The translations under genes were made by a program, and so were the position numbers. Positions 1 to 45,250 of a DNA stretch of 64,000 nt are shown one piece after another. Under the pieces are notes generated by a model. It did not search any database. It worked only from the letters and a program-made list of their open reading frames with translations, and had not been told where the DNA came from. Location of the stretch: IMG/VR virus record IMGVR_UViG_3300029286_003689, positions 1-64,000 of that record; one strand, given 5' to 3'. Origin of the DNA: a virus. How positions within the stretch are numbered: the first letter of the stretch is position 1; each line of letters opens with the position of its first letter.

Positions 1-2523
1 TTAAACGGGCTCCGCGCAAAACCGGCAACCGATAGACGAACCCGTATCCCAGCGATAGTAAGACGTAACCCGACCCCGGGAACCGCAATACACGCCGCCG
101 CCCCAATTACCGCCAGCAATCAGCTTTACATCATTGGAATAAATAGGGCGATACAACTGTCCTTTATCGCCTGGCAGATCATACCAAGCGGCTGTAACTG
201 CTGCGTCATACATCATTGTCTGCTCATCTAACCACTGCCAGAGAGCACCGCAGGCGTCTTCTACGCCTATGTTGGAAATCATACGCCTTGAGGCTGTGTC
301 TATATGGCCACCGGTAGTGCCAGGATCTCCAGCTCCATTAATGTTAGTCGCTTCGTTTGAACCTGTTGCTATTACCTGAAACTCTGGGTCAGTTAACATC
401 TTCTTCTTTACCGCTCCGCCGTCGTCAGTAAAGTCGTTCCAGTCGCGGGTGTCGGTGATCGTGGCTCCATAGACTGAGGCTGTGGATGTGCCGGTGCCGG
501 AAGCAAGGTAAATATCTACCCACTTGCTAATACCTTCACTATAAACCATACCTTCAGGCGCAGAGACTGGCCTATGGTTTAGATCCCAAATCGAAGCAGG
601 CAGAACGTCGCCAGCGACAAAATCGGTCAAGGTGTGGCCTGAAATCGTTCCTACGGCAACACAAAGCCCGTGGAAACCGCCTATTTTACGGCTGGATGTA
701 GTGCTATAGCCTGAAGGATAAGTGGTGCTGGCTGATAAGAGTATTTTAGGGGCTGTGCCAGATACGGGGACGCAAGCATAAATATAAAAGTCTTTGCCTG
801 CGCGGTTTGCAGCTGTGGTGTAATTCGTCGGGCTGGTAGTATCCCAGTTGGCCGCATTTGATACGTCTATTTCCGTCTGAGAAGTTATATAATAGACATT
901 CCCATTTATGGCAACCGATAATAAGGTTGGAGACGATATAGTGTATCTATTTACAGCTGTGCTATAAGGAGCCTTAAGCGCCCACTTATCGGCCCTGTCT
1001 CTTTGGTATAAACCAGGGAACATAGGAAGGCTTGCTTTTGTATCGGCATACGCTTTGCTACTTGGATTTAATAACTCCCATCGTGTATTCGCTAAATTAT
1101 ATTCCACGAGTGCTACATAACCAGCAGCTGGAATATCACCGGCTAATAAAGCAGATCCGCCCTGTTTGGTAACAGCATGCGCGGTTAAACCGTCTGGTGA
1201 AAAAGTCGGCGTGGTTGATGTATTGGATCCCGATGCTACAAAAGCAACTAAAGTTAAATCTGCAAGCGAAATATCCGGGCTATAATCAGCTGTTATAGCG
1301 TCTACTGTCCCAGAGGCAGTTACAATAGAAATGCTCCCAGTAGGGCCTTGTGTTCCCCTGCTTCCTGATACTGATATTGTCCAATCGGTAAAGGTGCCGG
1401 AACCGCCAATATCAAGAACATTAACTACTAAGGTTGTGCTTGAATAGCTTGTTACCTGACCGTGCATATAGTTAGCAGAGTTAGCGTCGGAGGAAATCAA
1501 AACAAATTGTCCGGCTGCAAACTGTTTTCCGGATTGAATAGTAAATGTCTTACTTCCGGTTGCTATGGCTATGCTTGAGGTTGAGGTAGCTTTAAGAGCT
1601 GCTGCGTAATTATTTGCAGCAGTAACGTCCAGGCCTGTCTGCACGCGGTCTGCGGCGGTGGCTATCTTATCTAAACCTGTTTGAACTCTGTCGGCTGCTG
1701 TAGCAACGGCATCGGCATCGGCACTATTTTTTGACGCTAAGGCTTCTCCTGCCTTTGTGGTAGCTATACCGGCCTGAGTCGTTGCAGTATCTTTATAACC
1801 TGACGTTGCTGTTTTATCTAAACCTGTCTGCACGCGGTCTGCGGCGGTTTGAACGGAGTCCGCATCTGCGCTATTCTTTGAGGATAAAGCAGCTACTGCG
1901 CTAAGCCCGGCATTTGTTTCAGCCGTCTCTGCGTTTCCTTCAGCTGTTTCTGCTGCTGTCTTGGCAACCACTGCCGCATCTCTGGCAGCCTCGCCGTCAT
2001 CAACTAAGCCACTAAGGATCTCGATATAGGCTTCAGTATCAGTACTCGTAGGTGTTTCATCTATCGGAAATTTAACACATCTTGATAATTCTTCGATATA
2101 CTGCTGAGCTATCATCGTAAGCTTATCAACCGCTTTTTCTACGTCTTCAGCATAAAACGGGCCGCCGTTCTTCCAATCAGTCTCTTGAGTAAGAAGCTCT
2201 TCGCGCGCTAAAGTGATTTTCTCGCCAGTAGCTAATAAAGGAAGACCAGAAACTACCGTCGGATAAGTAACATACTCATTATTGACATTGACAGAGTAAT
2301 TACTGGTTATCTCGGTTAAGGCCCCTGCGGTATCGGTTTTATAAAGCTTAATATCGCTTCCGTCGACTGTACTAATAGTAAAAGTAAAATCCCAATTCCT
2401 TGTGACTCCATTACCGTTATAGGTAATCTTATTCGTAGTGTCTGATATTTTCGCAAAAGCTGATGAACAAAAAATACCAAACGCCATCAATAGAATCCCA
2501 AATGAAACAAGTAGTTTCTTCAT
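1..2523 (-). CDS. Tail fibre / receptor-binding protein with C-terminal CLec (FGE-like) DGR-type variable domain and N-terminal signal-peptide-like extension
   Basis: T7 gp17-like anchor motif (YNGNGVTRNWDFTF), Ala/Thr-rich coiled repeats, C-terminus GGNW...GSR...IGCRFCAEPV homologous to 42914..45250; RBS AGGAG 9 nt before ATG. Confidence 0.85.
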   Translation of the reverse strand: MKKLLVSFGILLMAFGIFCSSAFAKISDTTNKITYNGNGVTRNWDFTFTISTVDGSDIKLYKTDTAGALTEITSNYSVNVNNEYVTYPTVVSGLPLLATGEKITLAREELLTQETDWKNGGPFYAEDVEKAVDKLTMIAQQYIEELSRCVKFPIDETPTSTDTEAYIEILSGLVDDGEAARDAAVVAKTAAETAEGNAETAETNAGLSAVAALSSKNSADADSVQTAADRVQTGLDKTATSGYKDTATTQAGIATTKAGEALASKNSADADAVATAADRVQTGLDKIATAADRVQTGLDVTAANNYAAALKATSTSSIAIATGSKTFTIQSGKQFAAGQFVLISSDANSANYMHGQVTSYSSTTLVVNVLDIGGSGTFTDWTISVSGSRGTQGPTGSISIVTASGTVDAITADYSPDISLADLTLVAFVASGSNTSTTPTFSPDGLTAHAVTKQGGSALLAGDIPAAGYVALVEYNLANTRWELLNPSSKAYADTKASLPMFPGLYQRDRADKWALKAPYSTAVNRYTISSPTLLSVAINGNVYYITSQTEIDVSNAANWDTTSPTNYTTAANRAGKDFYIYACVPVSGTAPKILLSASTTYPSGYSTTSSRKIGGFHGLCVAVGTISGHTLTDFVAGDVLPASIWDLNHRPVSAPEGMVYSEGISKWVDIYLASGTGTSTASVYGATITDTRDWNDFTDDGGAVKKKMLTDPEFQVIATGSNEATNINGAGDPGTTGGHIDTASRRMISNIGVEDACGALWQWLDEQTMMYDAAVTAAWYDLPGDKGQLYRPIYSNDVKLIAGGNWGGGVYCGSRGRVTSYYRWDTGSSIGCRFCAEPV
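11..124 (-). repeat. VR-like region of fibre A
   Basis: Aligns without gaps over 114 nt to TR 42723..42836; 17 mismatches at TR adenines and 12 at non-adenines. Confidence 0.75.
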
Positions 2524-2524
2524 T

Positions 2525-5500
2525 TTAATGCTCTCCTTTTTCTTTAGTAAATCTCTCCTTTAATTTTCTAAGTTTTATATCTGCCTGCTCTTTGGTTAAA
2601 TCACCTGATTTTACCTTTTTCCTAATTTCGCTTCGCCCTTCATAGAAGTCTCTCTCTAACCATTTTCTTACTTTCTGACGATAGGGAGATGTATCAGGTA
2701 CAATCTTAACGCCAAACATCTCACCTAATAGAGTTCTTCCGACGCCTATTTCCCGACCATATTTATCTGGCTTAGTAGATTTTATTATTCTACCTGGAGT
2801 AGAAGCGAGAATTTGAGGCGCAAGATTCTTTAAGATGTATTTCCCTTTTTCTATTGCTTTTTCATCTTCACTCAAATAATCCGGGGCTATTTTATCTTCT
2901 GTGAATGAATCGTAATTTAGAACAAAGGCATTGTAGAGAATAGGTAGTATGCCACCCATCGTTAAAGTCTGAGGCATCGCTAATTTGCCTTTCTCAACCG
3001 GATACCAACTTCCCCAAGGCAGAAAATAGGTTAAATCTATCCAATTCAGATCTCCATTTGCGTCTCGTCCCGGTAATAACAATACTGATTTACCACGTAT
3101 ATAATCAGGTTTTAACCTTTCTTCATCATCTTTACCTATGCCTAAGAGTCCTCTTGATAAAGCATTAAGCGTTGCCATGCCAGCAGAGAATAATATGAAT
3201 TTTTCAGGTTTACGTATGGCAAACTCAACTAAACGCGGAAGTACCTTGGCTGACCAAGTGATGAATGGAAAAAAGCTCTGTCTTGCATAACCCACTACTT
3301 CTGATGTTTGAGAATAATCAAAAAGTAGTTTATCGGCGAATTTTACTGCTTCTTCTGGAGATCCCCCTTGATCTAACACGTAACGGGCAATAACGGTTTT
3401 TGAAGCATCTTCTACTGCGCCGTATAGTACTGCCGGCGAATGCACAACTTCAGCTATATTATTGGCCCATATCTGAATTTGCTTATAAGGATTGCTGGGG
3501 TCTTCGTCTATATGAAAAGCTAACTCTTTTAATTCCTGCGCAGAGTAAGTATTGTGATAAAGCCCTCTATCTCTGAGTAATTTATAAGCCTCGTCTTTTG
3601 CTACGAATGATTTAATCCCCTTGGCTGCTACTACAGGATTATAAATAGGGACATCTCCCATCCAAGCCATAAGGGTATTAGTAACTATGTTCCGGGAGAC
3701 TGCCGCGGGGCTATAGGGAACCTTAAATAGCTTCCATATACTGTTGGCGTCTCTCCACATCTTGCCGAATTCGGATTGCATCGTATTCCACTTAGATACC
3801 TCTTTTACTAAATCTACCGGGACGTACTGCTCAGCCAGCACCCCATATTTCTTACCGGAAGGCATCTTGTCAAAGCCTTCTACTCCCTTATGTCCTATAA
3901 TGCCGGGTAAAGTCGCTATGGTATTAAATGCCTTGACCGTATAGACCATCTCTATCATTCCAAAAAGGCGTTTTTGTAAAGGATAGGCGGCAGTTTTAAT
4001 AAGCCCTAACTCTTCCCGGGCGTTTCTGCCTAATTCAATTAACTCTTCTTGGGAATACTCGGCTATTTTCTTTTTTGCTGATGGCCATGTACCGTATTGT
4101 GCTTCTAAAACCTTGCGGCCAAATTCTTCATCCGTCATCTTATGCTTCAAGCTTTCAAACCTTGCGCGGATAGCTTTCGACGGAAAATAACCAAAATTAC
4201 GCTTATTTTTCTCAAACTCCTTTGTGTCGTAGAAGAACGGAAAATACTGACCTACGTTATTCCAGAATATCTCGTCGTTAAGAAGCCCTAATTTTCTGGC
4301 TTCATTACCCCATACAGCTAATTCCTGCCGGGCTCCTTCAGTTAATTTACTCAATTCAGTATCTTTTACGGTGTCGCCAAACCTCTGTAAGCTCTCGGCT
4401 ATATACTGCTGTTCTTCTTTACTTAATTCACTTATTGGCTCAATAAGTTCCTCTCTTAATTTCTGCTGCTGGCCCTGGACAAGCTTTCTTCTTTGTCTCA
4501 ATATTTCCATTGCCGTATCATTAAGCCCGCCTCTCTCAAAAAAAGCAGAAGCATGAAGTTTTTTTCCAAGATTCTCTATGGCCTTGCTATAAACATTCCA
4601 AGCTTTATCTCTTGCTTTCTCGCTATAAAATGGCAACCTAAGGCCTCCTCTTTCAATCCATTCCTTGAGTTGAGGTTGTATTTCAGGAATTCTGCGAAGA
4701 GAAAGAACGTATTCCTTTAAGGGTTTCATTGCTGTTTCAAAATCACGTAACTTAGTGATTACATACTGCCATTCTTTATCTTGCCCTATGGTAGTCTCTA
4801 TTTGTGCGGTAAAATTGGGGGCCAATTTGCGGCAGATCTCCGGATCCATAGTGTAAGCGGCCACATAGTCAGCGAAGAGTTCAGGTTTGCTATTGCGGTA
4901 TGATTTAAAGGATTTTGATACGGAAGCAGGATCAAACGGCCTCATCTGTTGAGAAACCGCTTTTAATTCATCCCTAACGGCTTTCTTTTTGGATATCTGG
5001 TAGTCTCCCAGAACATCGTCGAGAAAATGCCCGGTTTCATGAAACAAGGTTTTTTCATCAGCAACGCTTCTTACCCGGATAAGCCCATTCTCTCCGAGCA
5101 TAGGGTAATATACGCCAAGCCACTTCTTCATACGCTTGGACACCTGTAGCTTTGGGCCTATCTCACGCTCAAAAACTCCGGTAATATCCCTGCCCTGATT
5201 TACCTTCCAAGCTTCGTTCTTCTCCCACTCCATATTACCTATAGCAGTAGAAGGCGGGACAGTCTTAGGTTTAACGCCTAATTTTCCTGATACGGATGCC
5301 TTGGATTCTTCTTCGGGTGATGCTGAGGGAAACGCGGAAGATTGCTTTTCTGGAAGGATATAGCTTACTTCTATTTCTTCGGGGGATCTGCGGACTATCT
5401 CAGCCTGTCCGCCCTTATCTTCTACATCGGTAATAAACGCTTCAACTTCTTCATCGGTCTTAAATAATTTGCTTCCTGCTAACTCAACGCCTTCAGCAGC

Positions 5501-8122
5501 AATTTCACTTTGTGCTTCCTCTTCTGCGATACGAACAATTTGCTCAATTTCGGATTCGTCATAACCTTGCTTTTTAAGTTCTTCCCGGAATTTTTCATCA
5601 GTTACCTCCTCTTCAAGAACCTCTGACTCTTTTTGTAGAGAATCTTTATATCCATTTATTAAATCTTCAAATATCGCCTGCTGCTTCTGTGTAACAGGGT
5701 TACCGTTTAATACCTTGTCTATTATAGCAAGGGTATTCTTTTTGGTATAGCCTTTATCTCTAAAATAATCTGGGAATGTAGAAGAGACTCCTATCCATTG
5801 CCCGGATTCAGTAGGCATGCGTTTGCCGGCTTCTCCTTCAGCAATCTGCTGACGCATTACCTTAGCATGCTCTAAATCCTCAGAGAGTACATTAACAACA
5901 CTCTTGATAATTTTTGCTTTGACAATCTTCTGTGCTTTAATCAGCGGAGTTTCGCTGCCTTGAGTAGGTATCTCAACATGAACGTGATAAGGCGTTTGCT
6001 CAGTATCTTCTACTGCTAAACCTAAATCTTGAGCAGCTTTAACCACCTCTTCATGAGTTAACCCAGTTCCTTTAATCTTGATATCTGCTGCGCGGCCAGT
6101 TAAATGAGTGCTATTTTCAGCCGGTTTGTATCCGCGTTTCTTTAAATCCTCGTTATATTCTTTCGTCCGGTATCCGCTGCTAATCGTTACCTGCTTTCCG
6201 AGTGCTTCCTGCAGTTTATTTATTTTAAAAAGAAGTTCTTCGTCAACCTTTACCTGCTCAATAGGCAGTGGTTTTTTAGCTTGATTAAAATTCTCTTTGG
6301 TTATCGGCTTTAAACCTTTCTTGCTTAAAACTTCATTGGTTTCTTCAGAAGCCTTCTTATTGTTTCTCTCAATAAACTGATCTTGTAATTCCGCTTGCCG
6401 TTTATTGATTGCCTCTAACCTGGCTTTAACCTCTGGGGTTTGCTTTTCTTTCTTTAATCGTATTTCCTCATCGATTAAATCTCCATGCTCTTTTCCTTCA
6501 TTATTAAGCCAATCTTCCTCGGATAAATCCGCTTCTTCAGGCTGCGCGACTGGATTAGCTTCTTTTATCTCGTTATATAATTCCTTCAGGTTAAATATTT
6601 CAGCCTTCTCCAGCTGCTTATCGCCAATCTTCATAATGGCTATCTTGTCATTACCTAATTTCTTGCCATCTACATAACCGCCTATTTGAGCTGAGTATTT
6701 ACCTCCTGCAGCCCCCATGTTGGCTAAGCTCTCTACGGCGTCGCCTCTTAAAACATAACCTTTAATGAAATCTGCCGCGGCTTCTCTGGGAGTTAATGTA
6801 GCATCTGATATTATGTTTCTTGTCTTGTCTAATAATTCCTTTGGGACTTCCGGCAAGCTATCTAAAGGCGCGCCACCTTTACTATCAGGAAGCTTCATAG
6901 CTTGATACTTGCCTTCGGCGTCCATAATTCCTACATCTTGAACGTCATCAGGGTTCACATCGTTATTAGTAACAATATCGGCATGCATATTAGCTGTCTC
7001 GTCGGTAATAACCGTTCCGTCTTTGAGGCGGATAGCAAGAGGGACGGGAGATTTTTCTTCAAAACCTATTGTTTTATTTATAACCTCATCAACTTTATCT
7101 ATCGTCTGGCTGATTTCATCTTCAGTTAATCCTTGTTTTAATCCCTCGTTGATAACTTGGCTATGTAGATCGTAACGAATATCATCTATGTGGGGGGCCT
7201 CAAATACGCCCAAGGCACCACCTGATACAGTTCCTGCCAAAATACTCTCCGCAAGCCCATCGGTAAGCCTATCCCATAAAGGACGCGGCTCTTTCCAATT
7301 AAGTACTTTAAGCGAATTCTCAAATACCTGCTGGCTGCCTTCTTCAATTAAGCCCTCTTGTAAGGCGGTTCTAAATACTCTTTTTAAGATATGGCCGCCC
7401 TTCATCCAGTTGCCTAAAACAGTATTCTCAAGAGCAGTTTGTACGGCGCCATCTAATACTGCCAAATCTGTGGCTTTCAGAGGATCAACGCCGTTTTTGA
7501 TTGATTCCTCATACATATCACCGGAAATAGCAGGAAAGAATGTTGCTGCGCCAGCAACGGGAGATCTTGTAAGTGCTGTAACACCGGCAGCTACTCCAAG
7601 CATAGGCAGGTTTTCAGCTGCCAAAGCCATTGTTTTTCTAAAAGGATGCTTCCAACCTAACAAGACTGCAGGGTTCGGGCTTTCTATGCCTTTGTTTGCA
7701 GCTTCATTGAAGAAATTCTTTACATCTCCTCCTATCTCTGCTATTGAATCACCAAACTTGAGAAAAAAATTATCAATAGCATCTCCGGCTTTACTGTTCT
7801 TACCTTTTTCTATGCGTAACCATGGAATGCTTTTTAAACCGGGGAAAGGTACTAAGGGGATGGTTTTTGATTTAGTCTCCTCGACAATATCCTTACCAAT
7901 AAACTCCATACCTGAGCCAAGCCCTGCAGGGATCCTCTCTACCCCTCTAAATAACGCTTTAGCCGAATCCATCCAGACATTGGCGGTATCTAAGGCGCGA
8001 AAAGTAACCTCTTCCGGTGAAGATGTAGGTTTTGCAGAGCCGATATCAAAACCAGTATCTAACTCCTCTGCGCCGTTTTCATTTTCTTTTATTGGGATAG
8101 CACTGGTAACATCAAAAGACAT
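2525..8122 (-). CDS. Large internal virion / DNA-ejection polyvalent protein with peptidase M15-like and HExxH domains
   Basis: Position of T7 gp16; SGYR...STHLTGRAADI...HVHVE (M15-type zinc peptidase) and LFHETGH motifs. Confidence 0.7.
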   Translation of the reverse strand: MSFDVTSAIPIKENENGAEELDTGFDIGSAKPTSSPEEVTFRALDTANVWMDSAKALFRGVERIPAGLGSGMEFIGKDIVEETKSKTIPLVPFPGLKSIPWLRIEKGKNSKAGDAIDNFFLKFGDSIAEIGGDVKNFFNEAANKGIESPNPAVLLGWKHPFRKTMALAAENLPMLGVAAGVTALTRSPVAGAATFFPAISGDMYEESIKNGVDPLKATDLAVLDGAVQTALENTVLGNWMKGGHILKRVFRTALQEGLIEEGSQQVFENSLKVLNWKEPRPLWDRLTDGLAESILAGTVSGGALGVFEAPHIDDIRYDLHSQVINEGLKQGLTEDEISQTIDKVDEVINKTIGFEEKSPVPLAIRLKDGTVITDETANMHADIVTNNDVNPDDVQDVGIMDAEGKYQAMKLPDSKGGAPLDSLPEVPKELLDKTRNIISDATLTPREAAADFIKGYVLRGDAVESLANMGAAGGKYSAQIGGYVDGKKLGNDKIAIMKIGDKQLEKAEIFNLKELYNEIKEANPVAQPEEADLSEEDWLNNEGKEHGDLIDEEIRLKKEKQTPEVKARLEAINKRQAELQDQFIERNNKKASEETNEVLSKKGLKPITKENFNQAKKPLPIEQVKVDEELLFKINKLQEALGKQVTISSGYRTKEYNEDLKKRGYKPAENSTHLTGRAADIKIKGTGLTHEEVVKAAQDLGLAVEDTEQTPYHVHVEIPTQGSETPLIKAQKIVKAKIIKSVVNVLSEDLEHAKVMRQQIAEGEAGKRMPTESGQWIGVSSTFPDYFRDKGYTKKNTLAIIDKVLNGNPVTQKQQAIFEDLINGYKDSLQKESEVLEEEVTDEKFREELKKQGYDESEIEQIVRIAEEEAQSEIAAEGVELAGSKLFKTDEEVEAFITDVEDKGGQAEIVRRSPEEIEVSYILPEKQSSAFPSASPEEESKASVSGKLGVKPKTVPPSTAIGNMEWEKNEAWKVNQGRDITGVFEREIGPKLQVSKRMKKWLGVYYPMLGENGLIRVRSVADEKTLFHETGHFLDDVLGDYQISKKKAVRDELKAVSQQMRPFDPASVSKSFKSYRNSKPELFADYVAAYTMDPEICRKLAPNFTAQIETTIGQDKEWQYVITKLRDFETAMKPLKEYVLSLRRIPEIQPQLKEWIERGGLRLPFYSEKARDKAWNVYSKAIENLGKKLHASAFFERGGLNDTAMEILRQRRKLVQGQQQKLREELIEPISELSKEEQQYIAESLQRFGDTVKDTELSKLTEGARQELAVWGNEARKLGLLNDEIFWNNVGQYFPFFYDTKEFEKNKRNFGYFPSKAIRARFESLKHKMTDEEFGRKVLEAQYGTWPSAKKKIAEYSQEELIELGRNAREELGLIKTAAYPLQKRLFGMIEMVYTVKAFNTIATLPGIIGHKGVEGFDKMPSGKKYGVLAEQYVPVDLVKEVSKWNTMQSEFGKMWRDANSIWKLFKVPYSPAAVSRNIVTNTLMAWMGDVPIYNPVVAAKGIKSFVAKDEAYKLLRDRGLYHNTYSAQELKELAFHIDEDPSNPYKQIQIWANNIAEVVHSPAVLYGAVEDASKTVIARYVLDQGGSPEEAVKFADKLLFDYSQTSEVVGYARQSFFPFITWSAKVLPRLVEFAIRKPEKFILFSAGMATLNALSRGLLGIGKDDEERLKPDYIRGKSVLLLPGRDANGDLNWIDLTYFLPWGSWYPVEKGKLAMPQTLTMGGILPILYNAFVLNYDSFTEDKIAPDYLSEDEKAIEKGKYILKNLAPQILASTPGRIIKSTKPDKYGREIGVGRTLLGEMFGVKIVPDTSPYRQKVRKWLERDFYEGRSEIRKKVKSGDLTKEQADIKLRKLKERFTKEKGEH

Positions 8123-8133
8123 TTCTCCTCCGA

Positions 8134-9672: not shown

Positions 9673-9682
9673 TTATTTTCTC

Positions 9683-10306: not shown

Positions 10307-10308
10307 CG

Positions 10309-10788: not shown

Positions 10789-13461
10789 TTAACCACCAAG
10801 AATTGTGACGGGAACGATTGATAAAATAGTAAAAGGAAATGGCGCTGTTTGTCTAAAAAACACCCTTCCGCTCTTCTTGTAACCACCTGGTATTGCCTGC
10901 TCGTGAAAACCAGAGAATAACTCTATCGGTTCACCTATTGCTTCACTGGTACGTCCTATCTTTATAGGGTCAAGGCTATTTTCAGATGATCCGATAAAAC
11001 CGCCTCTTGAATTAAGTAAATGCATTCTTAATCTTGCAACATTAGCAAGCTTTCCGTGAGTCGTTCCGACGTCAGTATTGATATCCCCATCTAAAGGTTC
11101 TACGTCGCATATATACGGCAGGCCCACATGAATAATTGAAGCTGGGTTAGATAACACTATCTCTCCGTCTTCAACCACCATTCCTTCTATCCAGTTTCCG
11201 TCAGCAACTACTGAAACGGTTTTGCCTTCAAGGTGGTCTAAATCAGGGACTGTCGTGATTGTTTTTCTAACCTCGCCGTCTTCTTCATAAGCCGTATACT
11301 CTGTGCCATCTATATCGCTATCGTCTTCCGGGTCAGTTAGTTCAAAGGCATTAGCAGAAGCGTTTGCAACCTTAAACCTTTTTCCGTTTAATTCAGTCAT
11401 ACCCTTTACTTCCAAGATGTCTACGAGGTCACCGTTTGCAAAACCATGCGCTTCTTCAGTGGTAATTACTACCGGACTGGCCTGAGTAGCTCCGGTTATT
11501 GTCATCGGATTATCGTAACTTATCCCGCAGTCTACGAAGAATTGCTTACGCGGATCCGTTGAGATCATCCGTTTAACCATCTTCTCAATAAATCTTTCTG
11601 TGCCGCGTTTTATAACCATCCAAACCTCATCATATCCAACAGTGGCATTAGGTATCGTCCAAATAGACTCTACCTGTCCGTCGGTATCATGCCAAGCCCA
11701 AGCAACTATTTCTTGCTCTCTAAGATAAGTCATAGACAATAACATGCCGTCATCCCTTACCAACCAAACCAAGCTATCAGGTTCTTTTTGGTAAGCCATA
11801 TCTATAATTCTGTGTCCTTCAAAGAGTTGATTTGAAAGCAAACTTAAAGGATCTCCTGTATAGCCGTCCGAGATATAATCGTATCCTAAATCCCAAACTA
11901 CTGTCCCCATGGGCTGAACGTATATAACCCTATTGCCTATCACTACCGGCAACACCTTTGAGCTACCGCGGCCTTCCTGAAGCTTTGGATAAACGGTTGT
12001 AGGGGTTAAGACTCCTTCCGATGATGAACCTATGCTCCATGCCCTTGAAGACGTAAAGGCAAGAATATCTCCTAATAAAATAAAGCTCTTTACGGCGTCC
12101 ATTTTTCGGCTGGGTAAACGTATACTTATGCCATCAGAATCAACCAGGGGGTCGCTTCTGCCAAAATTTATGTAATTATTTGTCCTTGTACTCCAAACCC
12201 CAAGAATTTCAGACTTCGTTGCACCAAAGACTAACCTGTCTTGCTCAAACATACAAGTAGCCGGATAACCTCTCTTTTCCGACCATGAACCCTCTGACCA
12301 AAACTCTGTTGCCGCGGTCGCTCCGACTTCCTTCAATACTTCCGCAGTTACCACTGTCGCGCTTGTAAATGCAGTTATTTTTACTATCCCGACCTGTGTA
12401 AAAGCATCTGTGCTCAAATCAACATTTATCGTCCCGCTTGTAAAAATAGTACATTTTACCCGGACAAGAACGGCATCGTCTTCATCAAAATCCCCGTAAG
12501 TATTGTGGTTGATGTCCCCATCGTAAGAAGTAAAACTCCTTACAGAAGACCAAGTTGTGCCACCGTCTATTGACTTCTCTATTTTAATAGTGCCTGTCCA
12601 GATTCCATGTGTAACAAGACGCCACGTGCCATTAGGCCCGCATTTTATTGAAGTAGTTTCTCCGACGGCAGTAAAGGCTTTTGAAACGAATTGACTTTCT
12701 ATATTATGCTCAAGTTTAAATAAGGCTCCTATGTGACCTACTTCAAATAATGCTTTACTTGCCGTAAGTGTAATTCCGCTACCTGTCACGGCGTTGGCGG
12801 TAAGAGTTAAATCCTCGTCTATGTTTTGCTGCATAAACGGGCCTTCTTCAAATGGATATAAGGCAATTCGCCAGCTATAATGAGAATATCTTGTAATAGT
12901 CCGGGGGCAAAAATCATTGTGGGTAACGTAGAGTACATCAGCCGATTGAGTGAATTGAAGGTCTTCCAGATCATCTTCAGCGTACGGTGTTTCTATTTCG
13001 TATATGTCTGAGGCTTCCCAATCAGTGACGTTGCCTGGAGGGGTTGCGTGGCCAGCGCCAGAGGTATGATTCGTCTTTGAACGATAAACAATACCGCCTA
13101 CCTTAACAAAATCTCCTATGTAGTAAACTGTGGCTGTTACCCATGCCGCTGTTGTCGTCGGGGCTATGAGCTGTCCGTCATTCATGTAAAATCGGCAATA
13201 ATACTCTCCGAATTCTATTGAATATACCTGATCAGCAGAAAATTCAAATCCTACTCCCCGGCATTTCTTATCGCTGTATTTTGGCTTCTTGATGAAATAG
13301 AGACCTGGTCTATTAGAGGCACCGCCATGGGGATGAGGAAAGGTGTTGCGTAGCCTGCGGCATCCTGAACCATAACGCTGCAGGTCTATGCGTGACCATA
13401 GGCTTGGAGCAAACTCTCCTCCGGTAAAAGCCGGCTTTAGTACTTCTATTTTCTGCGCCAT
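10789..13461 (-). CDS. Tail tubular protein B (nozzle, gp12-like)
   Basis: FTGGEFAP start, QSADVLY, AWAWHDT motifs; 890 aa. Confidence 0.85.
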   Translation of the reverse strand: MAQKIEVLKPAFTGGEFAPSLWSRIDLQRYGSGCRRLRNTFPHPHGGASNRPGLYFIKKPKYSDKKCRGVGFEFSADQVYSIEFGEYYCRFYMNDGQLIAPTTTAAWVTATVYYIGDFVKVGGIVYRSKTNHTSGAGHATPPGNVTDWEASDIYEIETPYAEDDLEDLQFTQSADVLYVTHNDFCPRTITRYSHYSWRIALYPFEEGPFMQQNIDEDLTLTANAVTGSGITLTASKALFEVGHIGALFKLEHNIESQFVSKAFTAVGETTSIKCGPNGTWRLVTHGIWTGTIKIEKSIDGGTTWSSVRSFTSYDGDINHNTYGDFDEDDAVLVRVKCTIFTSGTINVDLSTDAFTQVGIVKITAFTSATVVTAEVLKEVGATAATEFWSEGSWSEKRGYPATCMFEQDRLVFGATKSEILGVWSTRTNNYINFGRSDPLVDSDGISIRLPSRKMDAVKSFILLGDILAFTSSRAWSIGSSSEGVLTPTTVYPKLQEGRGSSKVLPVVIGNRVIYVQPMGTVVWDLGYDYISDGYTGDPLSLLSNQLFEGHRIIDMAYQKEPDSLVWLVRDDGMLLSMTYLREQEIVAWAWHDTDGQVESIWTIPNATVGYDEVWMVIKRGTERFIEKMVKRMISTDPRKQFFVDCGISYDNPMTITGATQASPVVITTEEAHGFANGDLVDILEVKGMTELNGKRFKVANASANAFELTDPEDDSDIDGTEYTAYEEDGEVRKTITTVPDLDHLEGKTVSVVADGNWIEGMVVEDGEIVLSNPASIIHVGLPYICDVEPLDGDINTDVGTTHGKLANVARLRMHLLNSRGGFIGSSENSLDPIKIGRTSEAIGEPIELFSGFHEQAIPGGYKKSGRVFFRQTAPFPFTILSIVPVTILGG

Positions 13462-15475: not shown

Positions 15476-16498
15476 TTACGCTGTGACTATTGACTCAGAA
15501 TTCAGGATCTTATCGCAACGGCGAATAGGTATACCCATGAACGTGGTCAGGGATTTACCATTCTCAAGCTCGCGGATAGTCAAATTCACATTGCTCTTGT
15601 TGTACGCTTTGATATCCAGAGCGGTCTTAACTTCTTTGTTGCAATACCACGCTGCGCGGCCAGAAGCTAAGCTCGGAACTTTATTCATCGCCTGAATCAT
15701 GAACTTAATCAGGTTAGCTGAACCGTCAACTTGATCACCGGCTTGCGCTAAGAGAGAAATATCCAGGTTGGCGATACGAACGGCGAATCTCCAGTCTCTC
15801 ACGCAAAGACCTAAGTCCTGGTAGAACTGGTCAACGAAAGCCAGATACTGCCCTGCAGGAGTCTGGTCATCGTTTACAAGCTGTTTACCCAAGTCGTTAT
15901 GGGTAATGCCTGCCTTGGTTGCGCGGGGATAAAACGCGTGGATGGTATTCTCTCCCCAGATTACTAACCACATAGACGTAACATCGGTCTGGCCAGCTAT
16001 GGCTCCGCCGTCTATTACGTTCTCGGAAGAAGCTACGGCTGCGGCGAGAGACGAGTAATACGGAGATAAACCTGTAAACCTCTCCGGATTGGTCTCTACA
16101 TTGCCGTAGAAGAGCGTAGTGGCCATTTCTTGAGACAATGCCTCAATGAATGGCGCGTTTTCGGAAATTCTGAAAGCCGCCTTGTCAACCGCGATATTGA
16201 CAAGCAATTCATCAATTTTACCCATGCCTTCAAGGTGCCCTGCGGTAAAAAGCTGCTGCCTTGTCTGGGATTTAGAGGGCTGAACGCCTCGGTTAATCTG
16301 TCTCCACGCAACGGTAGGAAGGCCCGTACGTATTGTGGATTTGTGCCCGGTGGTCGTGTTACCTTCAATGAACACGAGATCGGAAAGTATCTCGTTCTTT
16401 TCGTTCATCATTTCTGAAATACGTGCTATCTTTCCGTTCGGGTCAAGCCTTCTGGCATGATCCATTAGTGTTAAATTCGTATTGCCGATAGTACTCAT
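15476..16498 (-). CDS. Major capsid protein (BPP-1 Bbp17-like)
   Basis: RTGLP..WR..N.GV, DWRFAVRIANLD, FMGIPIRRCD motifs. Confidence 0.9.
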   Translation of the reverse strand: MSTIGNTNLTLMDHARRLDPNGKIARISEMMNEKNEILSDLVFIEGNTTTGHKSTIRTGLPTVAWRQINRGVQPSKSQTRQQLFTAGHLEGMGKIDELLVNIAVDKAAFRISENAPFIEALSQEMATTLFYGNVETNPERFTGLSPYYSSLAAAVASSENVIDGGAIAGQTDVTSMWLVIWGENTIHAFYPRATKAGITHNDLGKQLVNDDQTPAGQYLAFVDQFYQDLGLCVRDWRFAVRIANLDISLLAQAGDQVDGSANLIKFMIQAMNKVPSLASGRAAWYCNKEVKTALDIKAYNKSNVNLTIRELENGKSLTTFMGIPIRRCDKILNSESIVTA

Positions 16499-17386: not shown

Positions 17387-17704
17387 TTAAATATCGTCTG
17401 TCTCCGGAGGAATTTCTTTTTTAAGACTTTCTTGTTCTGATTTATATTCGTTCTGCATTTGCAGAAAAGCTTCTGGGGTTATATCAGCCCAGAAGAGTTG
17501 ACCTATAGATTGTTTTCCACAATTAAAATCTGTTTTGTTGTCGCCGGCAAAAGGGTTACGTAACACGCCGGATACACTCAACAAACGCCACATTAACCGT
17601 CTACCTTCAGCTAAACGCAAGACCCGGACAATATCACTAAGCTCGCGTTCCCTGAGCCTCTTGTCTCGTTCAGCTATTTTTTTACCTCTCTCTTCAGCGT
17701 TCAT
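17387..17704 (-). CDS. Bbp19-like head protein
   Basis: EGRRLMWRLL...FNCGKQSIG motif between portal and scaffold. Confidence 0.7.
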   Translation of the reverse strand: MNAEERGKKIAERDKRLRERELSDIVRVLRLAEGRRLMWRLLSVSGVLRNPFAGDNKTDFNCGKQSIGQLFWADITPEAFLQMQNEYKSEQESLKKEIPPETDDI

Positions 17705-19446
17705 TATTTCTTACCCTCTTGAACCTTTTGAGGAACGTCTTTGCCGGTTAAAGCTTTTATCACTGCATCAAGAGCAGTTCCCTCTCCCACTTTTGCTTGA
17801 GAAAGAGTCTTGGCGCCTTCAGCTGCTTGCATGCCTGACTGCATCTGTTGCTGCTTTAGAAGAGCTTCTTGTTTAGCCTTACGCATAGCAGCCACAATTT
17901 CAGCACTCCGTACAAGCCTTGCTGGAACACCCTTCATTTCGCTAAATGTCTCTATAATTTCATCAATATCAATCTTGTCTTCTGGCCCAGATTCCGGGAA
18001 TACCTTTCTTAACTCACCTACGAATTGACACAACTCTTGGATAGCCTGCGTCCCTATAGCCTTTTGAGCTTGCGAAAGTACTGAGATAAAATCGATCTTA
18101 ATATCCTGACCTTGTAGTTCTTCGGGAATCTCTGGAATCATGCCAAGAGCGAGCATTATTAAAAATGTTCTGCTTATCAATAAATCAAGGAAGTCTTCAA
18201 TTACGTCAAGCACCGGGCCGAGCATCATTAGCTTCTCTTCATACTTCTTTGCTATCTCTTCGGCGGTTACCTGTCTGCGATCAGACTGAAGAAGCATGAG
18301 AAATAAATCGGTATAGAAAGCCCTGCTTACTGAAGCGCGCGTATTCTCAATACTCTTGTCTACATCTGCAAGGCTAATCTGGACTTGATACGCAGGTCTT
18401 ACACCGGCGTCCGGAAGGTTAGAAGAGGATGTGGTTATTCCGCCAGGAGCAGTGTTTACCTCTCCTGAAACATTAGCGTCTTTTTGCAGTGGGGGCTTTA
18501 ACTGTAAGTCAAGAGCAAGATACCTGTCTTTCTGTAGCTTCTGAAGGCCTTTAGAAGCACCTAAAGCAAGCCAGCCCGGAGCACCCTTGCCATAAATATC
18601 CGCTGAAGTAGTAACTCCCCAGACAGCAGTCAAAACAGGGAAATCGTTATAACCACCTATGCGTAAGAAAGTATCTGCTGGGGATCCTGACTCCCATTGA
18701 ATTGACCGGTATTTCATATTCTGGAAATCTGCCTTATCCGGCACCCGGTCATCATTTTCTTCAATAAGATGGATTACTTTAATCCATTGACCTAATTCAG
18801 CCGCCCTCTTTGATTCATAGGATTTCTTTACGGTATCGCTTACGTTGTCTTTGCCAAACTCCTTAACGAGTTGGTCAACGGTCATCCAGAATTCACGCGC
18901 GAATCCGTTAACTCTTCCATCTGGGCCAACGCTTAAGAAATATTCGCCTGCGGTAAAATTCCTGGCTCTAACAACAGAATCAAAATCTTCCCCGATATAC
19001 ATTGCCGCTGTCCCAAAGCTTCCCAACTCTTCAAAGAACGAAGTCAATGCCCCGTAGATATTTGAGCGCTGGAAAACATTACGCATACGCTCTTCCACGG
19101 TATCAAGCCACAGTTTAACGTTTTGATTATCCATTAAGTCTTGGTCAGATACTCCAAGCTTAAACCAAGGCCTGACCTGAGAAGTCATACCGCTTGAGAT
19201 ACCAGAGCCAAGAGTCCTGCTACAATATTGAGGGTGCTCGTCAAGAAGCGTCTTATGATCTATAGCCTTTCCGTCATTAGGCTGATCATCAAAAAAGCCC
19301 CGTGTGGGGGCCTCATAGAGTTTGATATCTTTATACGTCGGCCAATACCGTTGACCTTCGCTCTTCATTGCGCTAACGCGCTGCTCAAACATTGCCCTGA
19401 GCAATCCTATACCAACCTTCTTTTTTTCTACTACTGCTTCAGGCAT
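17704..19446 (-). CDS. Portal (head-tail connector)
   Basis: RPWFKL, FGTA, TAEEI...LGPV motifs; 580 aa. Confidence 0.9.
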   Translation of the reverse strand: MPEAVVEKKKVGIGLLRAMFEQRVSAMKSEGQRYWPTYKDIKLYEAPTRGFFDDQPNDGKAIDHKTLLDEHPQYCSRTLGSGISSGMTSQVRPWFKLGVSDQDLMDNQNVKLWLDTVEERMRNVFQRSNIYGALTSFFEELGSFGTAAMYIGEDFDSVVRARNFTAGEYFLSVGPDGRVNGFAREFWMTVDQLVKEFGKDNVSDTVKKSYESKRAAELGQWIKVIHLIEENDDRVPDKADFQNMKYRSIQWESGSPADTFLRIGGYNDFPVLTAVWGVTTSADIYGKGAPGWLALGASKGLQKLQKDRYLALDLQLKPPLQKDANVSGEVNTAPGGITTSSSNLPDAGVRPAYQVQISLADVDKSIENTRASVSRAFYTDLFLMLLQSDRRQVTAEEIAKKYEEKLMMLGPVLDVIEDFLDLLISRTFLIMLALGMIPEIPEELQGQDIKIDFISVLSQAQKAIGTQAIQELCQFVGELRKVFPESGPEDKIDIDEIIETFSEMKGVPARLVRSAEIVAAMRKAKQEALLKQQQMQSGMQAAEGAKTLSQAKVGEGTALDAVIKALTGKDVPQKVQEGKK

Positions 19447-19866: not shown

Positions 19867-21360
19867 CTATTTGTTTGCGAAGGGGTCGTAATCGTTCTTG
19901 GCGAATTGAGGCTGTTCGTTAGACTTCTTTTTAGTAATGGGAAAGGCAAAGGTAATTGCGGGAGCATCTGCCCTGCTTGGTGAAGCAAGACCCCTATCTT
20001 TCATTGTCTTTTTAGACTCAAGGACTATCTCGCCTTTTAAATTTGGATAAGATTCCGGGCCAGTTAAATCGTCAATTAACTTTTGGTCATCAGGAACACA
20101 ACCGCCTTCTTCAAGCCACTTCTTCATCTTGCCCCACATCTCAGCGCGCTTATTAGCATATCCGGGCGTTGTTGATTTAGAGCCAAAAGAACAAAGCAGC
20201 CATTGCCGATTCATCTGTTTACCAAAAGAATAAACGCCTGTGCCGTAACCTAAGTCAATAATAACTCCGTCGGCTTTCTCTCTATCTTCCCATGCGGCCA
20301 CTGCTGCCGCTATCAAAGCGTCATTGTCATTCTTCTGGAATGTTTGCAGTTGCCGATATACCAAGCCTTGTCGTATACCAATAACTATTTCATCCCCGCC
20401 AGTCCAAGCCATATCTACGCCGATTATTTTGGGAGCAAAATTATATTTATGCGCTTCTATCTGCCTGCCGCGGGCTGCCTCTGCTAAATCAGTAGGAATA
20501 AATTGCAGATCTCCAGCTTTAGGAAAAAGCCCAAGCACGTGCACACGCACCCAGTCGCTATCTATTCCTAAGTCATCAATCCACTCTCTAACCTTTTTTT
20601 GGTTAACGAGCATTGACTTACGAATATCAAGCTGCCATTGCTTCCAGCGATGCCGCATCTTTCCCCAGCATTCACGAAAGCGGCCGGTATTTCTGGTAGG
20701 GTTTCCAAAGACAAGCCACAGTATCTGAGTTCCTAAGTCAGTTAACGCACCTTCTGCTGTCTCCCATATCTTGTCAGGAATAGCTGAAGCCTCATCAAAA
20801 ACAAGGAGTATGCGCTTGCCTTTATTGTGTAAGCCGGCAAAAGCCTCAACATTATGCTCACTCCAAGGAACCTGATCTATTCTCCAGGTACGCTCATGCT
20901 CTTTGCTCTTGGCGTATATGGCTGTAGCTGTAAGTTCAAACCAGTGCTTAGCTATAAAAAGCCTGTACCATTTACTAAGTTCAGCCCACGTCTTAGTGCG
21001 CAGCTGAGTCTCTGTGTTAGCAGTAACAACTCCGCGCGTATCTTCAAAGGTCGATAAAGCCCAAAGGATAATCCAAGCAACCAGCGCGCTCTTACCAGGC
21101 CCATTACCTGAAGCCACCGAAATCTGGACAACATAGCTTACAGCTTCCTGAACCGTCTTTTTACCGGCTTGCAACTGATCCCGAATGTACTTTAAAACCT
21201 CTTCCTGCCATTTATCCGGGCCTGTGTATCCTTCAAGCTCATCTTCACCCCACCTAAAAGAAAAAAGAACCCAGCCGTACGGATCCTTTTCAAATGAAGC
21301 CATGTCTTCAACAAGCTGAAGTTCGGCTTTTATTTCTTCTTCGCGGTCGAGCTCTGGCAT
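19867..21360 (-). CDS. terL: Terminase large subunit
   Basis: Walker A SGNGPGKS, Walker B LLVFDEAS, FGNPTR, nuclease GVDMA and SRADA. Confidence 0.92.
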   Translation of the reverse strand: MPELDREEEIKAELQLVEDMASFEKDPYGWVLFSFRWGEDELEGYTGPDKWQEEVLKYIRDQLQAGKKTVQEAVSYVVQISVASGNGPGKSALVAWIILWALSTFEDTRGVVTANTETQLRTKTWAELSKWYRLFIAKHWFELTATAIYAKSKEHERTWRIDQVPWSEHNVEAFAGLHNKGKRILLVFDEASAIPDKIWETAEGALTDLGTQILWLVFGNPTRNTGRFRECWGKMRHRWKQWQLDIRKSMLVNQKKVREWIDDLGIDSDWVRVHVLGLFPKAGDLQFIPTDLAEAARGRQIEAHKYNFAPKIIGVDMAWTGGDEIVIGIRQGLVYRQLQTFQKNDNDALIAAAVAAWEDREKADGVIIDLGYGTGVYSFGKQMNRQWLLCSFGSKSTTPGYANKRAEMWGKMKKWLEEGGCVPDDQKLIDDLTGPESYPNLKGEIVLESKKTMKDRGLASPSRADAPAITFAFPITKKKSNEQPQFAKNDYDPFANK

Positions 21361-32759: not shown

Positions 32760-32939
32760 TTATTACTCCTTTTAGTTTATTGATACGAGAGTCCGCGCTT
32801 GTATCGGAACCACCCGTCTTTACATAGGCGCGGTACTCTCTCGATGATTCTTTCCTCATGGCACGTCCGGGGAGACGTTCATCTAATTGCCACTTCTTAT
32901 TTCCGGGCTGTGGTTAGCAGACCCTCACCACCCTATTTA

Positions 32940-33011
32940 TTGCGGGGGTGGGAATCGAACCCACGCTTATCCGGGTATGAACCGGACGCCTTTCCGCTTG
33001 GCTACCCCGCG
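32940..33011 (-). tRNA. tRNA with CAU anticodon, fMet-like acceptor stem, no encoded CCA
   Basis: Full cloverleaf CGCGGGG...TCCGG-TTCATAC-CCGGA...GTGGG-TTCGATT-CCCAC-CCCCGCA-A; C1.A72 mismatch. Confidence 0.88.
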
Positions 33012-33091
33012 AGATCTTAGTTTTCGCTTCAATTTCTTTATAAGCCTAAGACTATTTTGCAAAACAATATAAGCACCTATGCCAGTAATCG

Positions 33092-35536: not shown

Positions 35537-35551
35537 AAAAAAACTGCTACT

Positions 35552-36076: not shown

Positions 36077-36099
36077 CTCCTTTTTCTTTAACTGTTTTA

Positions 36100-36182: not shown

Positions 36183-36189
36183 TACGAGT

Positions 36190-36744
36190 ATGAACATGAA
36201 AACTACATTGAAATTTAAAGACTTGTTAGCTAAATATCGCGACCGCGAAAACTTGTCAAAAACTGATATTGCTCAAAAGATAGATGTAACGGTTAGCTAT
36301 ATCATCGATATTGAAGCTGGCAGGAAGAAACCGCCAACATTGGAGAAATGCCAAAAACTGATAGAAGTTTTAAAATTAACTGCTGAAGAAGCGGGGGGAT
36401 TCATTAAATCCGCACTTTATGAAAGGGCCTCTAAAGAAATACTGGAATTTCTAAAATTGCAATCTGAACTTAAAGATTTGTTTGTGGATAAAGCTATACG
36501 AGGGGTTTCTTCTGTTAAGGAAGATCGCAATACTCTGTTCGTGCAAGTTCCTAAAGAATTTGCTTATATTATCAAAAAACATCCAGAGATATTTGCCGCC
36601 ATCCAAGACCCAATCGCCATTAATGCGTTGCTTATTACCTTTAAAAATACGCAAGATATTAAGAATACTATTAAGGCCCTTTTGGAGACTATACCGAGTC
36701 TTACTCCGGAAAAGAGGCGGGCGTTATTAGCATTATGTAGATGA
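36190..36744 (+). CDS. CI-like XRE repressor (start re-assigned to ATG 36190; no S24 peptidase domain visible)
   Basis: LSKTDIAQKIDVTVSYIIDIEAGRKKPP HTH. Confidence 0.8.
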   Translation: MNMKTTLKFKDLLAKYRDRENLSKTDIAQKIDVTVSYIIDIEAGRKKPPTLEKCQKLIEVLKLTAEEAGGFIKSALYERASKEILEFLKLQSELKDLFVDKAIRGVSSVKEDRNTLFVQVPKEFAYIIKKHPEIFAAIQDPIAINALLITFKNTQDIKNTIKALLETIPSLTPEKRRALLALCR

Positions 36745-36757
36745 AGAGGGATAAGTT

Positions 36758-37048
36758 TTGAAGATTGGCGGATGGGAAGTTAATAAGTTAGAGGTAATAG
36801 TAGGCGCTTCTTTGCTACTGTTAATCTTATTAGGATTTTTACTTACGATTGGGACTATCTTTGGCATCCCGAACAAGCTGTCAAATGCCTTGATGGCTGG
36901 AGGCTTAATAGTAGGTATCCCCTATTTTCTGTGTATAGTGGTTGGTACGCTTTTTCTGCTTCCCGTATTTCTATTCTATATACTTAAAACCTTGTACATT
37001 ATTTTTACTAACCCACGCCCAATTAAAAAAACAAAATGGAAAGAGTAA
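36758..37048 (+). CDS. Membrane protein (lysogenic cargo)
   Basis: 2-3 hydrophobic segments, co-oriented with cI. Confidence 0.55.
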   Translation: MKIGGWEVNKLEVIVGASLLLLILLGFLLTIGTIFGIPNKLSNALMAGGLIVGIPYFLCIVVGTLFLLPVFLFYILKTLYIIFTNPRPIKKTKWKE

Positions 37049-37548
37049 TTTCATTCTTATTGATATTGCTTATCTCTGGCTGCGCAACGCTATCTTCCTT
37101 ACCACAGAAGACATCCGAAGTTGACTTTAATTCCCTCAATACTGGTCGTACTGCAATGTGGACTTATGAAGACAGTACCTTCTTTGACAATATGGACAAG
37201 GAGATGATCTTTCTTGCAGCTAAGCATGGTTTATCTGTAAATGATTTTATTATCCGTAGGGCTTCTTTTGAGGAGGGGGTTTTATTTGGATATCACGATT
37301 CTACTGCCCACGATTGGAATGTAGTAGCTGGAGTCTATATTAAACAGTTCGAAAAAAAGACTGCGGTTAAAGTGATAGCAAAAACCTCAAAAGATTTCTC
37401 TCTGGTTGGAAATATTGGAGACACTACCTCTGCCGGTTGGCCGCAACTTATTATTAGCGCGATGCAAGATTATATCGTAAAGGAATCATTAACTTCTAAT
37501 AGACCTACAAAACATTTAAGAGTAGATGAATCCAAAAGACAGGATTAG
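37036..37548 (+). CDS. Lipoprotein (possible superinfection exclusion)
   Basis: Signal peptide with lipobox LISGC. Confidence 0.7.
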   Translation: MERVISFLLILLISGCATLSSLPQKTSEVDFNSLNTGRTAMWTYEDSTFFDNMDKEMIFLAAKHGLSVNDFIIRRASFEEGVLFGYHDSTAHDWNVVAGVYIKQFEKKTAVKVIAKTSKDFSLVGNIGDTTSAGWPQLIISAMQDYIVKESLTSNRPTKHLRVDESKRQD

Positions 37549-37554
37549 GATATT

Positions 37555-37755
37555 ATGGAGCTAAAAGATAGGATAAAAATACTCAGAAAAGAAAAACACT
37601 TAACCATGTTGCAACTTGGCAAGGGAGCTAAAGTAGCTGAGTGTACTGTCTCTTATTGGGAAAAGGGCCGTCAGGAACCTAATACTATGCAAAGAAGACG
37701 GCTATGTCGCTTCCTCGGAATTACTCAATCTGAATTATTTAAAGGGGTAACCTGA
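37555..37755 (+). CDS. XRE HTH protein coupled to the integrase
   Basis: HTH motif; TGATG overlap with int. Confidence 0.8.
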   Translation: MELKDRIKILRKEKHLTMLQLGKGAKVAECTVSYWEKGRQEPNTMQRRRLCRFLGITQSELFKGVT

Positions 37756-38747
37756 TGTCATCTCTCTACCGCAGAAAAGAGATCTACTGGCTCTCCTTCC
37801 GGTACCATGGAAAAGCCTACTGTATAAGTCTTGGTACTCGGGATCGCTCCACTGCCATCTATCTAAAGGCCAAAAAAGACCAAGAAATGGCTGAAGGTAA
37901 ATATATCATTCGCCAGGATGTTTCTTGTGAGGAAGTACTGAAAGACTACATGGAAACTTCGCAGCATCGTAAAACAAAAAAAACTAACGATAACGATGAG
38001 TCCAGGATAGAAAAATTTCTAAAGCAGAGCGGGATAACTAAGGTTAATCAGATAACAGAGAAAAGGCTGCAGGAATACCTTAACCATCGCATCAATAAAG
38101 ATGGGCTTGCGCTTTCATCAGCTAACCGGCTTATAGCTACCTTTAAGGCATGGCTTAATTTCGCTGTCAGGCGCAAGATTATCTTTGAGAATCCTATACG
38201 ATATTTTAAAGGATATAACCCGGGCCAACGGCATTTTAAATTATTGACGCTTGATGAGATTAAAACAATAATAGATTCAGCAGAAAAAAATCCACGAGTG
38301 GAACTTGCTATTTGGTCTGGACTATATGCTGGGATGAGAATAGAAGAAGCCTATGGGTTAGAGTGGCCAGACATAGATTTTGAGAATGACGATATAACAA
38401 TCAAACGAGGCGGGGAAGTTATAACTAAATCCAAAAAAGAGCGCATTGTCCCTATGACAGAAAAATTCAGGGAAAAGCTTCTATCGGCCAGAAAAAATTC
38501 AGGTCGATGCTTTGATTCTGTCAATCACAAACGCATAGTCGCAAACTTCATAAAATCGACTAAGATAAAGGGTATTAATTTTAAAAGCTTTCGGCATGCT
38601 TATGCTTCTTATTTATTAATGAGTGGAGTTGATCTCTATACTGTATCTCAGCTTTTAGGACATTCCAGCGTGAGGGTAACCGAACAGCACTACGCACACC
38701 TGATAAAGGATCATAAAAAAGCCTCAGTAAAGAAGCTTCCTTATTAA
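37755..38747 (+). CDS. int: Tyrosine recombinase (phage integrase)
   Basis: GMR, SFRH, LLGH, HYAH catalytic motifs. Confidence 0.95.
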   Translation: MSSLYRRKEIYWLSFRYHGKAYCISLGTRDRSTAIYLKAKKDQEMAEGKYIIRQDVSCEEVLKDYMETSQHRKTKKTNDNDESRIEKFLKQSGITKVNQITEKRLQEYLNHRINKDGLALSSANRLIATFKAWLNFAVRRKIIFENPIRYFKGYNPGQRHFKLLTLDEIKTIIDSAEKNPRVELAIWSGLYAGMRIEEAYGLEWPDIDFENDDITIKRGGEVITKSKKERIVPMTEKFREKLLSARKNSGRCFDSVNHKRIVANFIKSTKIKGINFKSFRHAYASYLLMSGVDLYTVSQLLGHSSVRVTEQHYAHLIKDHKKASVKKLPY

Positions 38748-38750
38748 GAT

Positions 38751-45250: not shown

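Follow-up and report, generated by a model that had tools for sequence, protein, structure and literature searches.

Two fibre genes with variable repeats in one viral record

We analysed a window of 64,000 nucleotides, corresponding to positions 1-64000 of the 75,018-bp IMG/VR record IMGVR_UViG_3300029286_003689, which appears to hold two phages, hereafter A (left) and B (right), each with a tail fibre gene that ends in the variable repeat (VR) of a diversity-generating retroelement (DGR). The genes for fibre A (1-2523, minus strand, 840 amino acids) and fibre B (42914-45250, minus strand, 778 amino acids) were recognised among the open reading frames as encoding Mtd-like receptor-binding fibres, and both products match the Pfam family mtd_2nd (E = 5e-17 for fibre A). 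The repeats, VR-A at 11-124 and VR-B at 42924-43037, are 114 nt long and are located on the minus strand at the extreme 3' ends of the two genes. In phage B, the VR is followed on the same strand by a short hairpin (42874-42903), by a template repeat of 114 nt with 27 adenines (TR-B, 42723-42836) and by the gene for a DGR reverse transcriptase of 343 amino acids (RT-B, 41561-42592), which was identified by Pfam RVT_1 (E = 4e-18) and contains the motifs IGNYTSQ and YCDD.

The C-terminal halves of the two fibres are 65% identical (305/471 positions, BLASTP) and about 75-80% identical at the DNA level. This agrees with the first-pass annotation of the sequence, which had called them closely similar; both peptides that it quoted are identical in A and B. 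A profile built from the C-terminal domains of 7 family members matches the Mtd protein of Bordetella phage (1YU4, E = 1.6e-18) as well as the entries 1YU2, 1YU0 and 2IOU (E ~1e-18), and the match covers Mtd residues 93-372, including the end that bears the VR. With fibre A alone as the query, phmmer gave no match in PDB. Judging from the profile matches, we consider both fibres to be true homologues of Mtd.

For comparisons, we used relatives retrieved in a search with fibre A, retaining the best 80 of 125 viral loci, and the record under study was excluded from the scans of viral contigs. Three related genomes are central to the analysis, namely L013 (IMGVR_UViG_3300049911_000188), L095 (the Omnitrophota metagenome-assembled genome, MAG, JAPLLY010000054.1) and G001 (IMGVR_UViG_3300014204_000335). 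At the genome level, the closest matches are to Omnitrophota MAGs, and an Omnitrophota bacterium is the likely host of the two phages.

The DGR cassette of phage B

All TR and VR sequences were compared in a register of 114 nt ending in GCGCGGA, and positions are numbered within this register. TR-B and VR-B differ at 13 positions, all 13 of which are adenines in TR-B, with no differences at other bases over the 114 nt (chance probability 4.6e-10). The two repeats are identical up to GCGCGGA and diverge thereafter, corresponding to the initiation of mutagenic homing element (IMH) in the VR versus IMH* in the TR. The hairpin starts 11 nt past the fibre B stop codon and by direct reading consists of the stem CGGAC/GTCCG with a 9-nt loop, followed by a run of T; it is a candidate DGR target hairpin and/or terminator. 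In the relatives, the hairpin after the VR has one of the stems CCGAAC/GTTCGG, CGGAC/GTCCG or GCCGAA/TTCGGC, in which the changes are compensated, while the loop ACGNANYAC is conserved and a T-run follows. The DNA folding energy of single hairpin sequences was no better than that of shuffled sequences (z -0.05 to -1.3), and RNAalifold returned no structure for the region after the VR because the register of the hairpin shifts between variants. RT-B shares 81-90% identity with its counterparts in the closest relatives. On these features the cassette of phage B is judged to be complete, with an adenine-only TR/VR pair, a DGR-type RT adjoining the TR, and IMH/IMH* plus hairpin.

No gene in the 39.4-42.9 kb region matched bAvd in Pfam, and the only bAvd gene of the record (71577-71942) belongs to a second DGR. 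Avd is common among DGRs, but not universal. Six small genes downstream of RT-B (39387-41592, minus strand), with homologues in the relatives L010, L017 and L012, gave no significant match to Pfam or PHROG families; the first of these (41281-41592) overlaps the end of the RT gene. In relatives without a TR and an RT, homologues of the genes at 40950-41267 and 40338-40676 are located directly after the VR.

The fibres of A and B and the cassette belong to the known Mtd-type phage DGRs, here in phages of Omnitrophota. As in the DGR of phage BPP-1 (Mtd/avd/TR/brt), the target is an Mtd homologue with the VR at the extreme 3' end of the gene, only TR adenines are substituted, TR and VR are identical to the end of a G/C-rich stretch and then diverge, a short hairpin follows the VR, and the RT carries IGxxxSQ and YxDD motifs. 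Unlike BPP-1, cassette B contains no avd gene between target and TR, which are separated by only about 75 nt, and the order is target, TR, RT and small genes of unassigned function; the host lineage and the loop and stem of the hairpin also differ. In BPP-1, the IMH together with the downstream hairpin suffices to target a heterologous gene (PMC3240598), and these requirements match the layout in the A/B family.

The template of VR-A

The comparison of VR-A with TR-B revealed 17 differences at TR adenines and 12 at other bases (positions 7, 25, 30, 33, 38, 39, 40, 43, 50, 59, 70 and 97), which reproduces the count in the first-pass annotation. Its further statement that only two of the non-adenine differences fall in the 3' half, both synonymous, holds in that the changes at positions 70 and 97 affect third codon bases and are synonymous, but position 59 is at the midpoint and the count thus depends on where the boundary between the halves is drawn. 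VR-A was checked against all TRs that the family yielded. L013 and L095 have one and the same TR, which differs from VR-A at 15 adenines and at no other base, and the chance that all 15 differences should fall among its 26 adenines is 3.7e-12. The next-best template, of the type found in the relative L009, leaves 4 non-adenine differences. The annotation had proposed that VR-A was written by a related but different TR and had predicted its sequence; the fit to the L013/L095 TR bears out the proposal, and the prediction nearly matches the real TR of these two genomes. Comparison within the repeats thus identifies a TR of the L013/L095 type, and not TR-B, as the last writer of VR-A.

The two templates differ from each other at 18 positions, the 3'-most of which is position 97. 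At this position VR-A carries the base of the L013-type TR and VR-B the base of TR-B, and over the whole register VR-B shows 13 non-adenine differences to the L013-type TR. Information transfer in BPP-1 stops, on the 3' side, within the G/C-rich stretch of the IMH, and the foreign base would therefore be expected at position 97 of any cross-written VR. PMC11601372 also describes a crossover interval in the region of the 3' boundary. Both VRs have the base of their own type, so in the consensus sequence the most recent homing event to be fixed was a cognate one at each VR. The annotation had also suggested retrohoming between the two phages. No footprint of this is seen, in that each VR bears the non-adenine markers of its own TR type only, up to and including position 97. 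As a target in trans of the phage B DGR, VR-A lacks both the adenine-only pattern and the TR-B base at position 97. The action of one RT/TR on several VRs in one cell is established, for example in Treponema and Legionella, and additional targets in prophages are usually less than 50 kb away (survey by Wu et al. 2017, PMC5758913). In those DGRs, every VR shows adenine-only differences to the one TR; with its 12 non-adenine differences to TR-B, VR-A would not be counted among the targets by that standard. Each VR records which TR type last wrote it. An orphan VR can be assigned to its missing template simply by checking its non-adenine markers against a panel of TRs from the family, and claims of homing in trans can be tested on consensus sequences in the same way.

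Conservation of the homing end

The last 27 nt of the fibre genes, comprising the 3' end of the VR, an IMH-like element and the stop codon, are identical in A and B (1-27 versus 42914-42940, minus strand), as had been noted before. Position 97 abuts this segment. No longer exact match exists between the two halves of the record, where the next ones in length are 26 and 25 nt. From the shared IMH-side sequence, the annotation had suggested that each RT/TR might also mutagenise the fibre of the other phage. The exact 27-mer also occurs in the Omnitrophota MAG locus L095 and in a further 8 IMG/VR contigs, which come from 6 samples. It there adjoins at least 5 different TR sequences, and the fibre genes that carry it share only 66-70% DNA identity with A or B. 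Among the closer relatives, the VR ends in the motif TGCCGGTT(T/C)TGCGCGGAGCC(C/A)GTTTA(A/G). This distribution argues that the 27-nt end is the conserved IMH of the phage family, presumably held constant by the need for retrohoming, rather than a specific link between A and B. The identity at the homing end is as predicted from functional constraint and is therefore no sign of exchange between the two phages.

Probable cassette exchange among the relatives

Of the 15 loci in which both repeats could be scored, 11 showed differences at adenines only. In other loci, the VR did not match the adjacent TR, with 11 non-adenine differences in L014 (1024-1357) and 16 in L018 (2146-2479) and L019 (7060-7393). 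In all three, the VR tail after GCGCGGA and the hairpin are of the type of the adjacent TR. Retrohoming transfers neither the VR-specific tail nor the hairpin. Because both co-vary with the adjacent TR, homing in trans was rejected as the main explanation for these loci, and it is simpler to assume that homologous DNA recombination within the conserved VR 3' end exchanged the whole downstream cassette. One TR of the L009 type, identical base for base, is found beside six different VRs, as would be expected of a mobile cassette. The DGR cassette that circulates in the Omnitrophota phages is modular, of the Mtd type and strictly conserved at its homing end, and is often swapped or lost.

Arrangement of the two phages and the probable cassette of phage A

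Phages A and B each contain a full set of terminase, portal, major head and tail genes. No BLASTP match at 1e-5 was obtained between the terminases, portals or major capsid proteins of the two, and yet their genes fall into the same PHROG families (phrog_2 for the terminase, phrog_332 and phrog_376). The earlier description of the head and terminase genes as very different is therefore correct, whereas the term "unrelated" is too strong, and from their gene content A and B are better described as distinct, distantly related mosaic phages. Phage A ends on the right in a gene for a tyrosine integrase (37755-38747, plus strand; Pfam Phage_integrase, E = 3e-23). The junction between the phages (38748-39386) is colinear in blastn comparisons with the region from the late end to the integrase, containing attP, in the single-phage genomes L012, L013 and L014, and looks like an intact attP.

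No cognate TR for VR-A is present in the 75-kb record, in which bases 1-3 are the stop codon of fibre A. A random contig end falls on a gene boundary only very rarely, and for this reason the left end of the record is best read as a cut made at a gene boundary by the provirus caller. The sequence downstream of fibre A, which is the flank expected to hold the TR, is therefore outside the record. Among metagenome contigs, the 60-mer just upstream of VR-A had a sole match, to the 5.5-kb contig L086, which belongs to a different phage (the same phage as L009, 78% identical).

The closest whole-genome relative of phage A, G001 (41,176 bp, 96% complete), matches positions 838-35040 of phage A colinearly, with 87-92% identity. 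This contig starts halfway through the fibre gene and stops within the C-terminal 107 amino acids of an RT sharing 85% identity with RT-B; it is therefore a circularly permuted A-type genome in which the assembly was broken across the module of fibre tip, TR and RT. The contig ends of G001 are represented by the loci L005, L093 and L094. Because G001 ends within an RT at the expected place, A-type phages carry an RT of their own. Likewise, the TR of L096 (L096:11090-11160) is truncated by the end of its 167-kb Omnitrophota contig. Assembly breaks within the module of fibre tip, VR, TR and RT are common in this phage family, a tendency that may account for the end of our record as well. L013, a more distant A-like genome rated as 100% complete, shows the full order of fibre, VR, TR and RT, and most relatives with enough downstream sequence have the TR and RT directly after the fibre gene. 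The relatives L013 and L095 carry the TR type that fully explains VR-A, and G001 is the close relative of phage A with an RT downstream of the fibre, but all three are single phages, unlike the record with A and B. Neither an A+B pair nor two copies of the fibre gene were seen in any related contig retrieved (best 80 of 125 loci), and in the larger related contigs G006 (75.9 kb) and G007-G009 neither the A nor the B terminase has a match.

The first-pass annotation had placed a TR and an RT of phage A just left of the window. The A-like genome G001, with its RT at the corresponding position, supports this claim indirectly, while the record itself starts at the fibre A stop and does not show the cassette directly; we consider it rather likely that phage A has a TR and an RT of its own. 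Taken as a whole, the most probable explanation, to which we give good though not full credence, is that the record represents a trimmed provirus in which two distinct, distantly related temperate phages are arranged head-to-tail. Each phage would have an Mtd-type fibre with a C-terminal 114-nt VR that is diversified by a modular DGR cassette, in the order VR, IMH, short hairpin, TR and RT that appears to be widespread in the family. VR-B would have been written by TR-B and VR-A by the cognate TR of phage A, of the L013/L095 type, which we infer to be located together with its RT just left of base 1, beyond the cut of the record. The shared 27-nt end would in both phages be a conserved homing element required by the retrohoming machinery.

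Alternative explanations

The absence of TR-A and RT-A from the record weighs against this explanation, as do the relatives in which the cassette has been lost. In L007, L010 and L017, the TR and RT are cleanly deleted, so that the VR and hairpin are joined to genes that in phage B follow the RT, and in L012 only a 43-nt stub of the TR and an inverted RT fragment are left (L007:2075-2400, L010:11356-11700, L017:1687-2000, L012:11010-11300). All four have at least 5 kb of sequence past the VR without a TR and an RT. The orphan VRs nevertheless look intact, with no non-adenine difference to the L013-type TR in L012 and one in L007, and an intact-looking VR is therefore no proof of a nearby cassette. 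By analogy, phage A might have lost its TR and RT, in which case VR-A would be a frozen orphan and the left end of the record would be near the true end of the prophage; that the provirus caller cut exactly at the fibre gene is in line with this. On the other hand, G001, the closest whole-genome relative of A, has an RT at the expected position, and assembly breaks inside the VR/TR module are frequent in this family. Moreover, homologues of the small genes that follow RT-B still follow the VR in the relatives that have lost the cassette, and phage sequence should therefore extend to the left of base 1, such that the cut is not the true end of the prophage. We regard the loss of the cassette from phage A as unlikely, albeit less so than the two alternatives considered below. 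The second RT of the record (70269-71363) was rejected as a candidate for the missing RT of phage A, as it has an unrelated TR, an Avd and two VRs of its own.

Alternatively, A and B might be two co-occurring phages whose genomes form a circular cointegrate or were joined into a chimera during assembly. Many of the relatives co-occur within the same samples, and the colinearity of the junction with the intact region of late end, attP and integrase in single phages is as expected from such an event. Further observations that weigh against a tandem integration are that no recognisable host DNA is seen in the junction or elsewhere in the record, and that neither an att duplication nor an integrase on the B side is visible. 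But sequential integration at one att site, as in lambda-type site-specific recombination, reconstitutes attP between the prophages and would equally explain the junction. Furthermore, exact repeats between the halves of the record reach no more than 27 nt, too short to mislead an assembler within the record, and the record, which is trimmed at both ends, is assigned to the class provirus in IMG/VR. A chimera or cointegrate hence seems improbable, and we infer a true tandem integration.

Least probable of all is a network in which each cassette of the double lysogen would also write the VR of the other phage by use of the shared IMH and related RTs. Such a network is mechanistically plausible, given that the IMH end is identical in both VRs, that the RTs associated with both TR types are 87-90% identical to RT-B, that IMH and hairpin can direct homing to a heterologous gene in BPP-1 (PMC3240598), and that avd, TR and brt act in trans from a plasmid, as summarised in PMC5758913. 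Against this stand the marker bases, since VR-A has 12 non-adenine differences to TR-B including the one that abuts the 27-mer, while VR-B has none to TR-B and 13 to the L013-type TR, such that the last fixed event was cognate at each VR. In addition, the two TRs encode different invariant scaffold residues (e.g. NGVNCGSRGR versus NAANAGSRYR), by which cross-written fibres may be counter-selected, and the hairpin downstream of VR-A is outside the record. Paper searches and keyword look-ups in the papers that were opened gave nothing on homing between co-resident prophages. The consensus sequence gives no trace of cross-homing and lends it no support, and we consider it very unlikely that these two phages have formed such a network. 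It is just as doubtful for hosts lysogenised by any two phages of this family that the shared IMH and hairpin let each DGR occasionally write the fibre of the other phage and yield hybrid VRs. Cross-writing that is rare or counter-selected would escape the consensus, and the mismatches in L014 and L018/L019 could then be partly its footprints. If it does occur, co-resident prophages would share one diversification machinery and polylysogeny would be a source of new receptor-binding scaffolds, a new route by which DGRs shuffle scaffolds that would be of interest for research on DGRs and host range.

Other genes of the two phages

The late genes of phage A (2525-21360, minus strand) were assigned with PHROGs and are colinear with G001 at 87-92% nucleotide identity. 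They include genes for a 1865-amino acid tail protein (2525-8122), a tail protein of phrog_376 (10789-13461), the major head protein (15476-16498), a phrog_332 protein that is named head-tail adaptor in PHROGs and read here as the portal (17704-19446) and the large terminase (19867-21360), all on the minus strand. The 1865-amino acid protein contains an endolysin-like segment (phrog_894, residues 617-700), and is probably a tail-associated lysin. The early region of phage A (21917-35827, minus strand), also assigned with PHROGs and colinear with G001, encodes a methyltransferase, RecT/RecE-like proteins and an SbcC-like protein. A gene for tRNA-Met (CAT) was identified within this region by ARAGORN (32939-33012), and is also conserved in G001 and L014.

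The late genes of phage B, likewise assigned with PHROGs, are located at 45803-62165 on the minus strand. Besides a 1360-amino acid tail protein, they encode a tail protein of phrog_376 (52151-54190), the major head protein (55446-56381), a phrog_332 protein with the same PHROGs name, again read as the portal (58407-60206), and the large terminase (60819-62165), all on the minus strand.

The early region of phage B contains a second, unrelated DGR, which is located beyond the window at 70269-73703 of the record and corresponds to L004:6269-9703. Its RT of 364 amino acids (70269-71363) is 36% identical to RT-B, and the TR (71338-71447) and the bAvd gene mentioned above are followed by two VRs (71975-72085 and 73180-73288) at the ends of small proteins. 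The genome of L013 also has a second RT. With its two targets, this element (70.3-73.7 kb) is similar to the known multi-target DGRs, and all core differences between its TR and VRs are at TR adenines.

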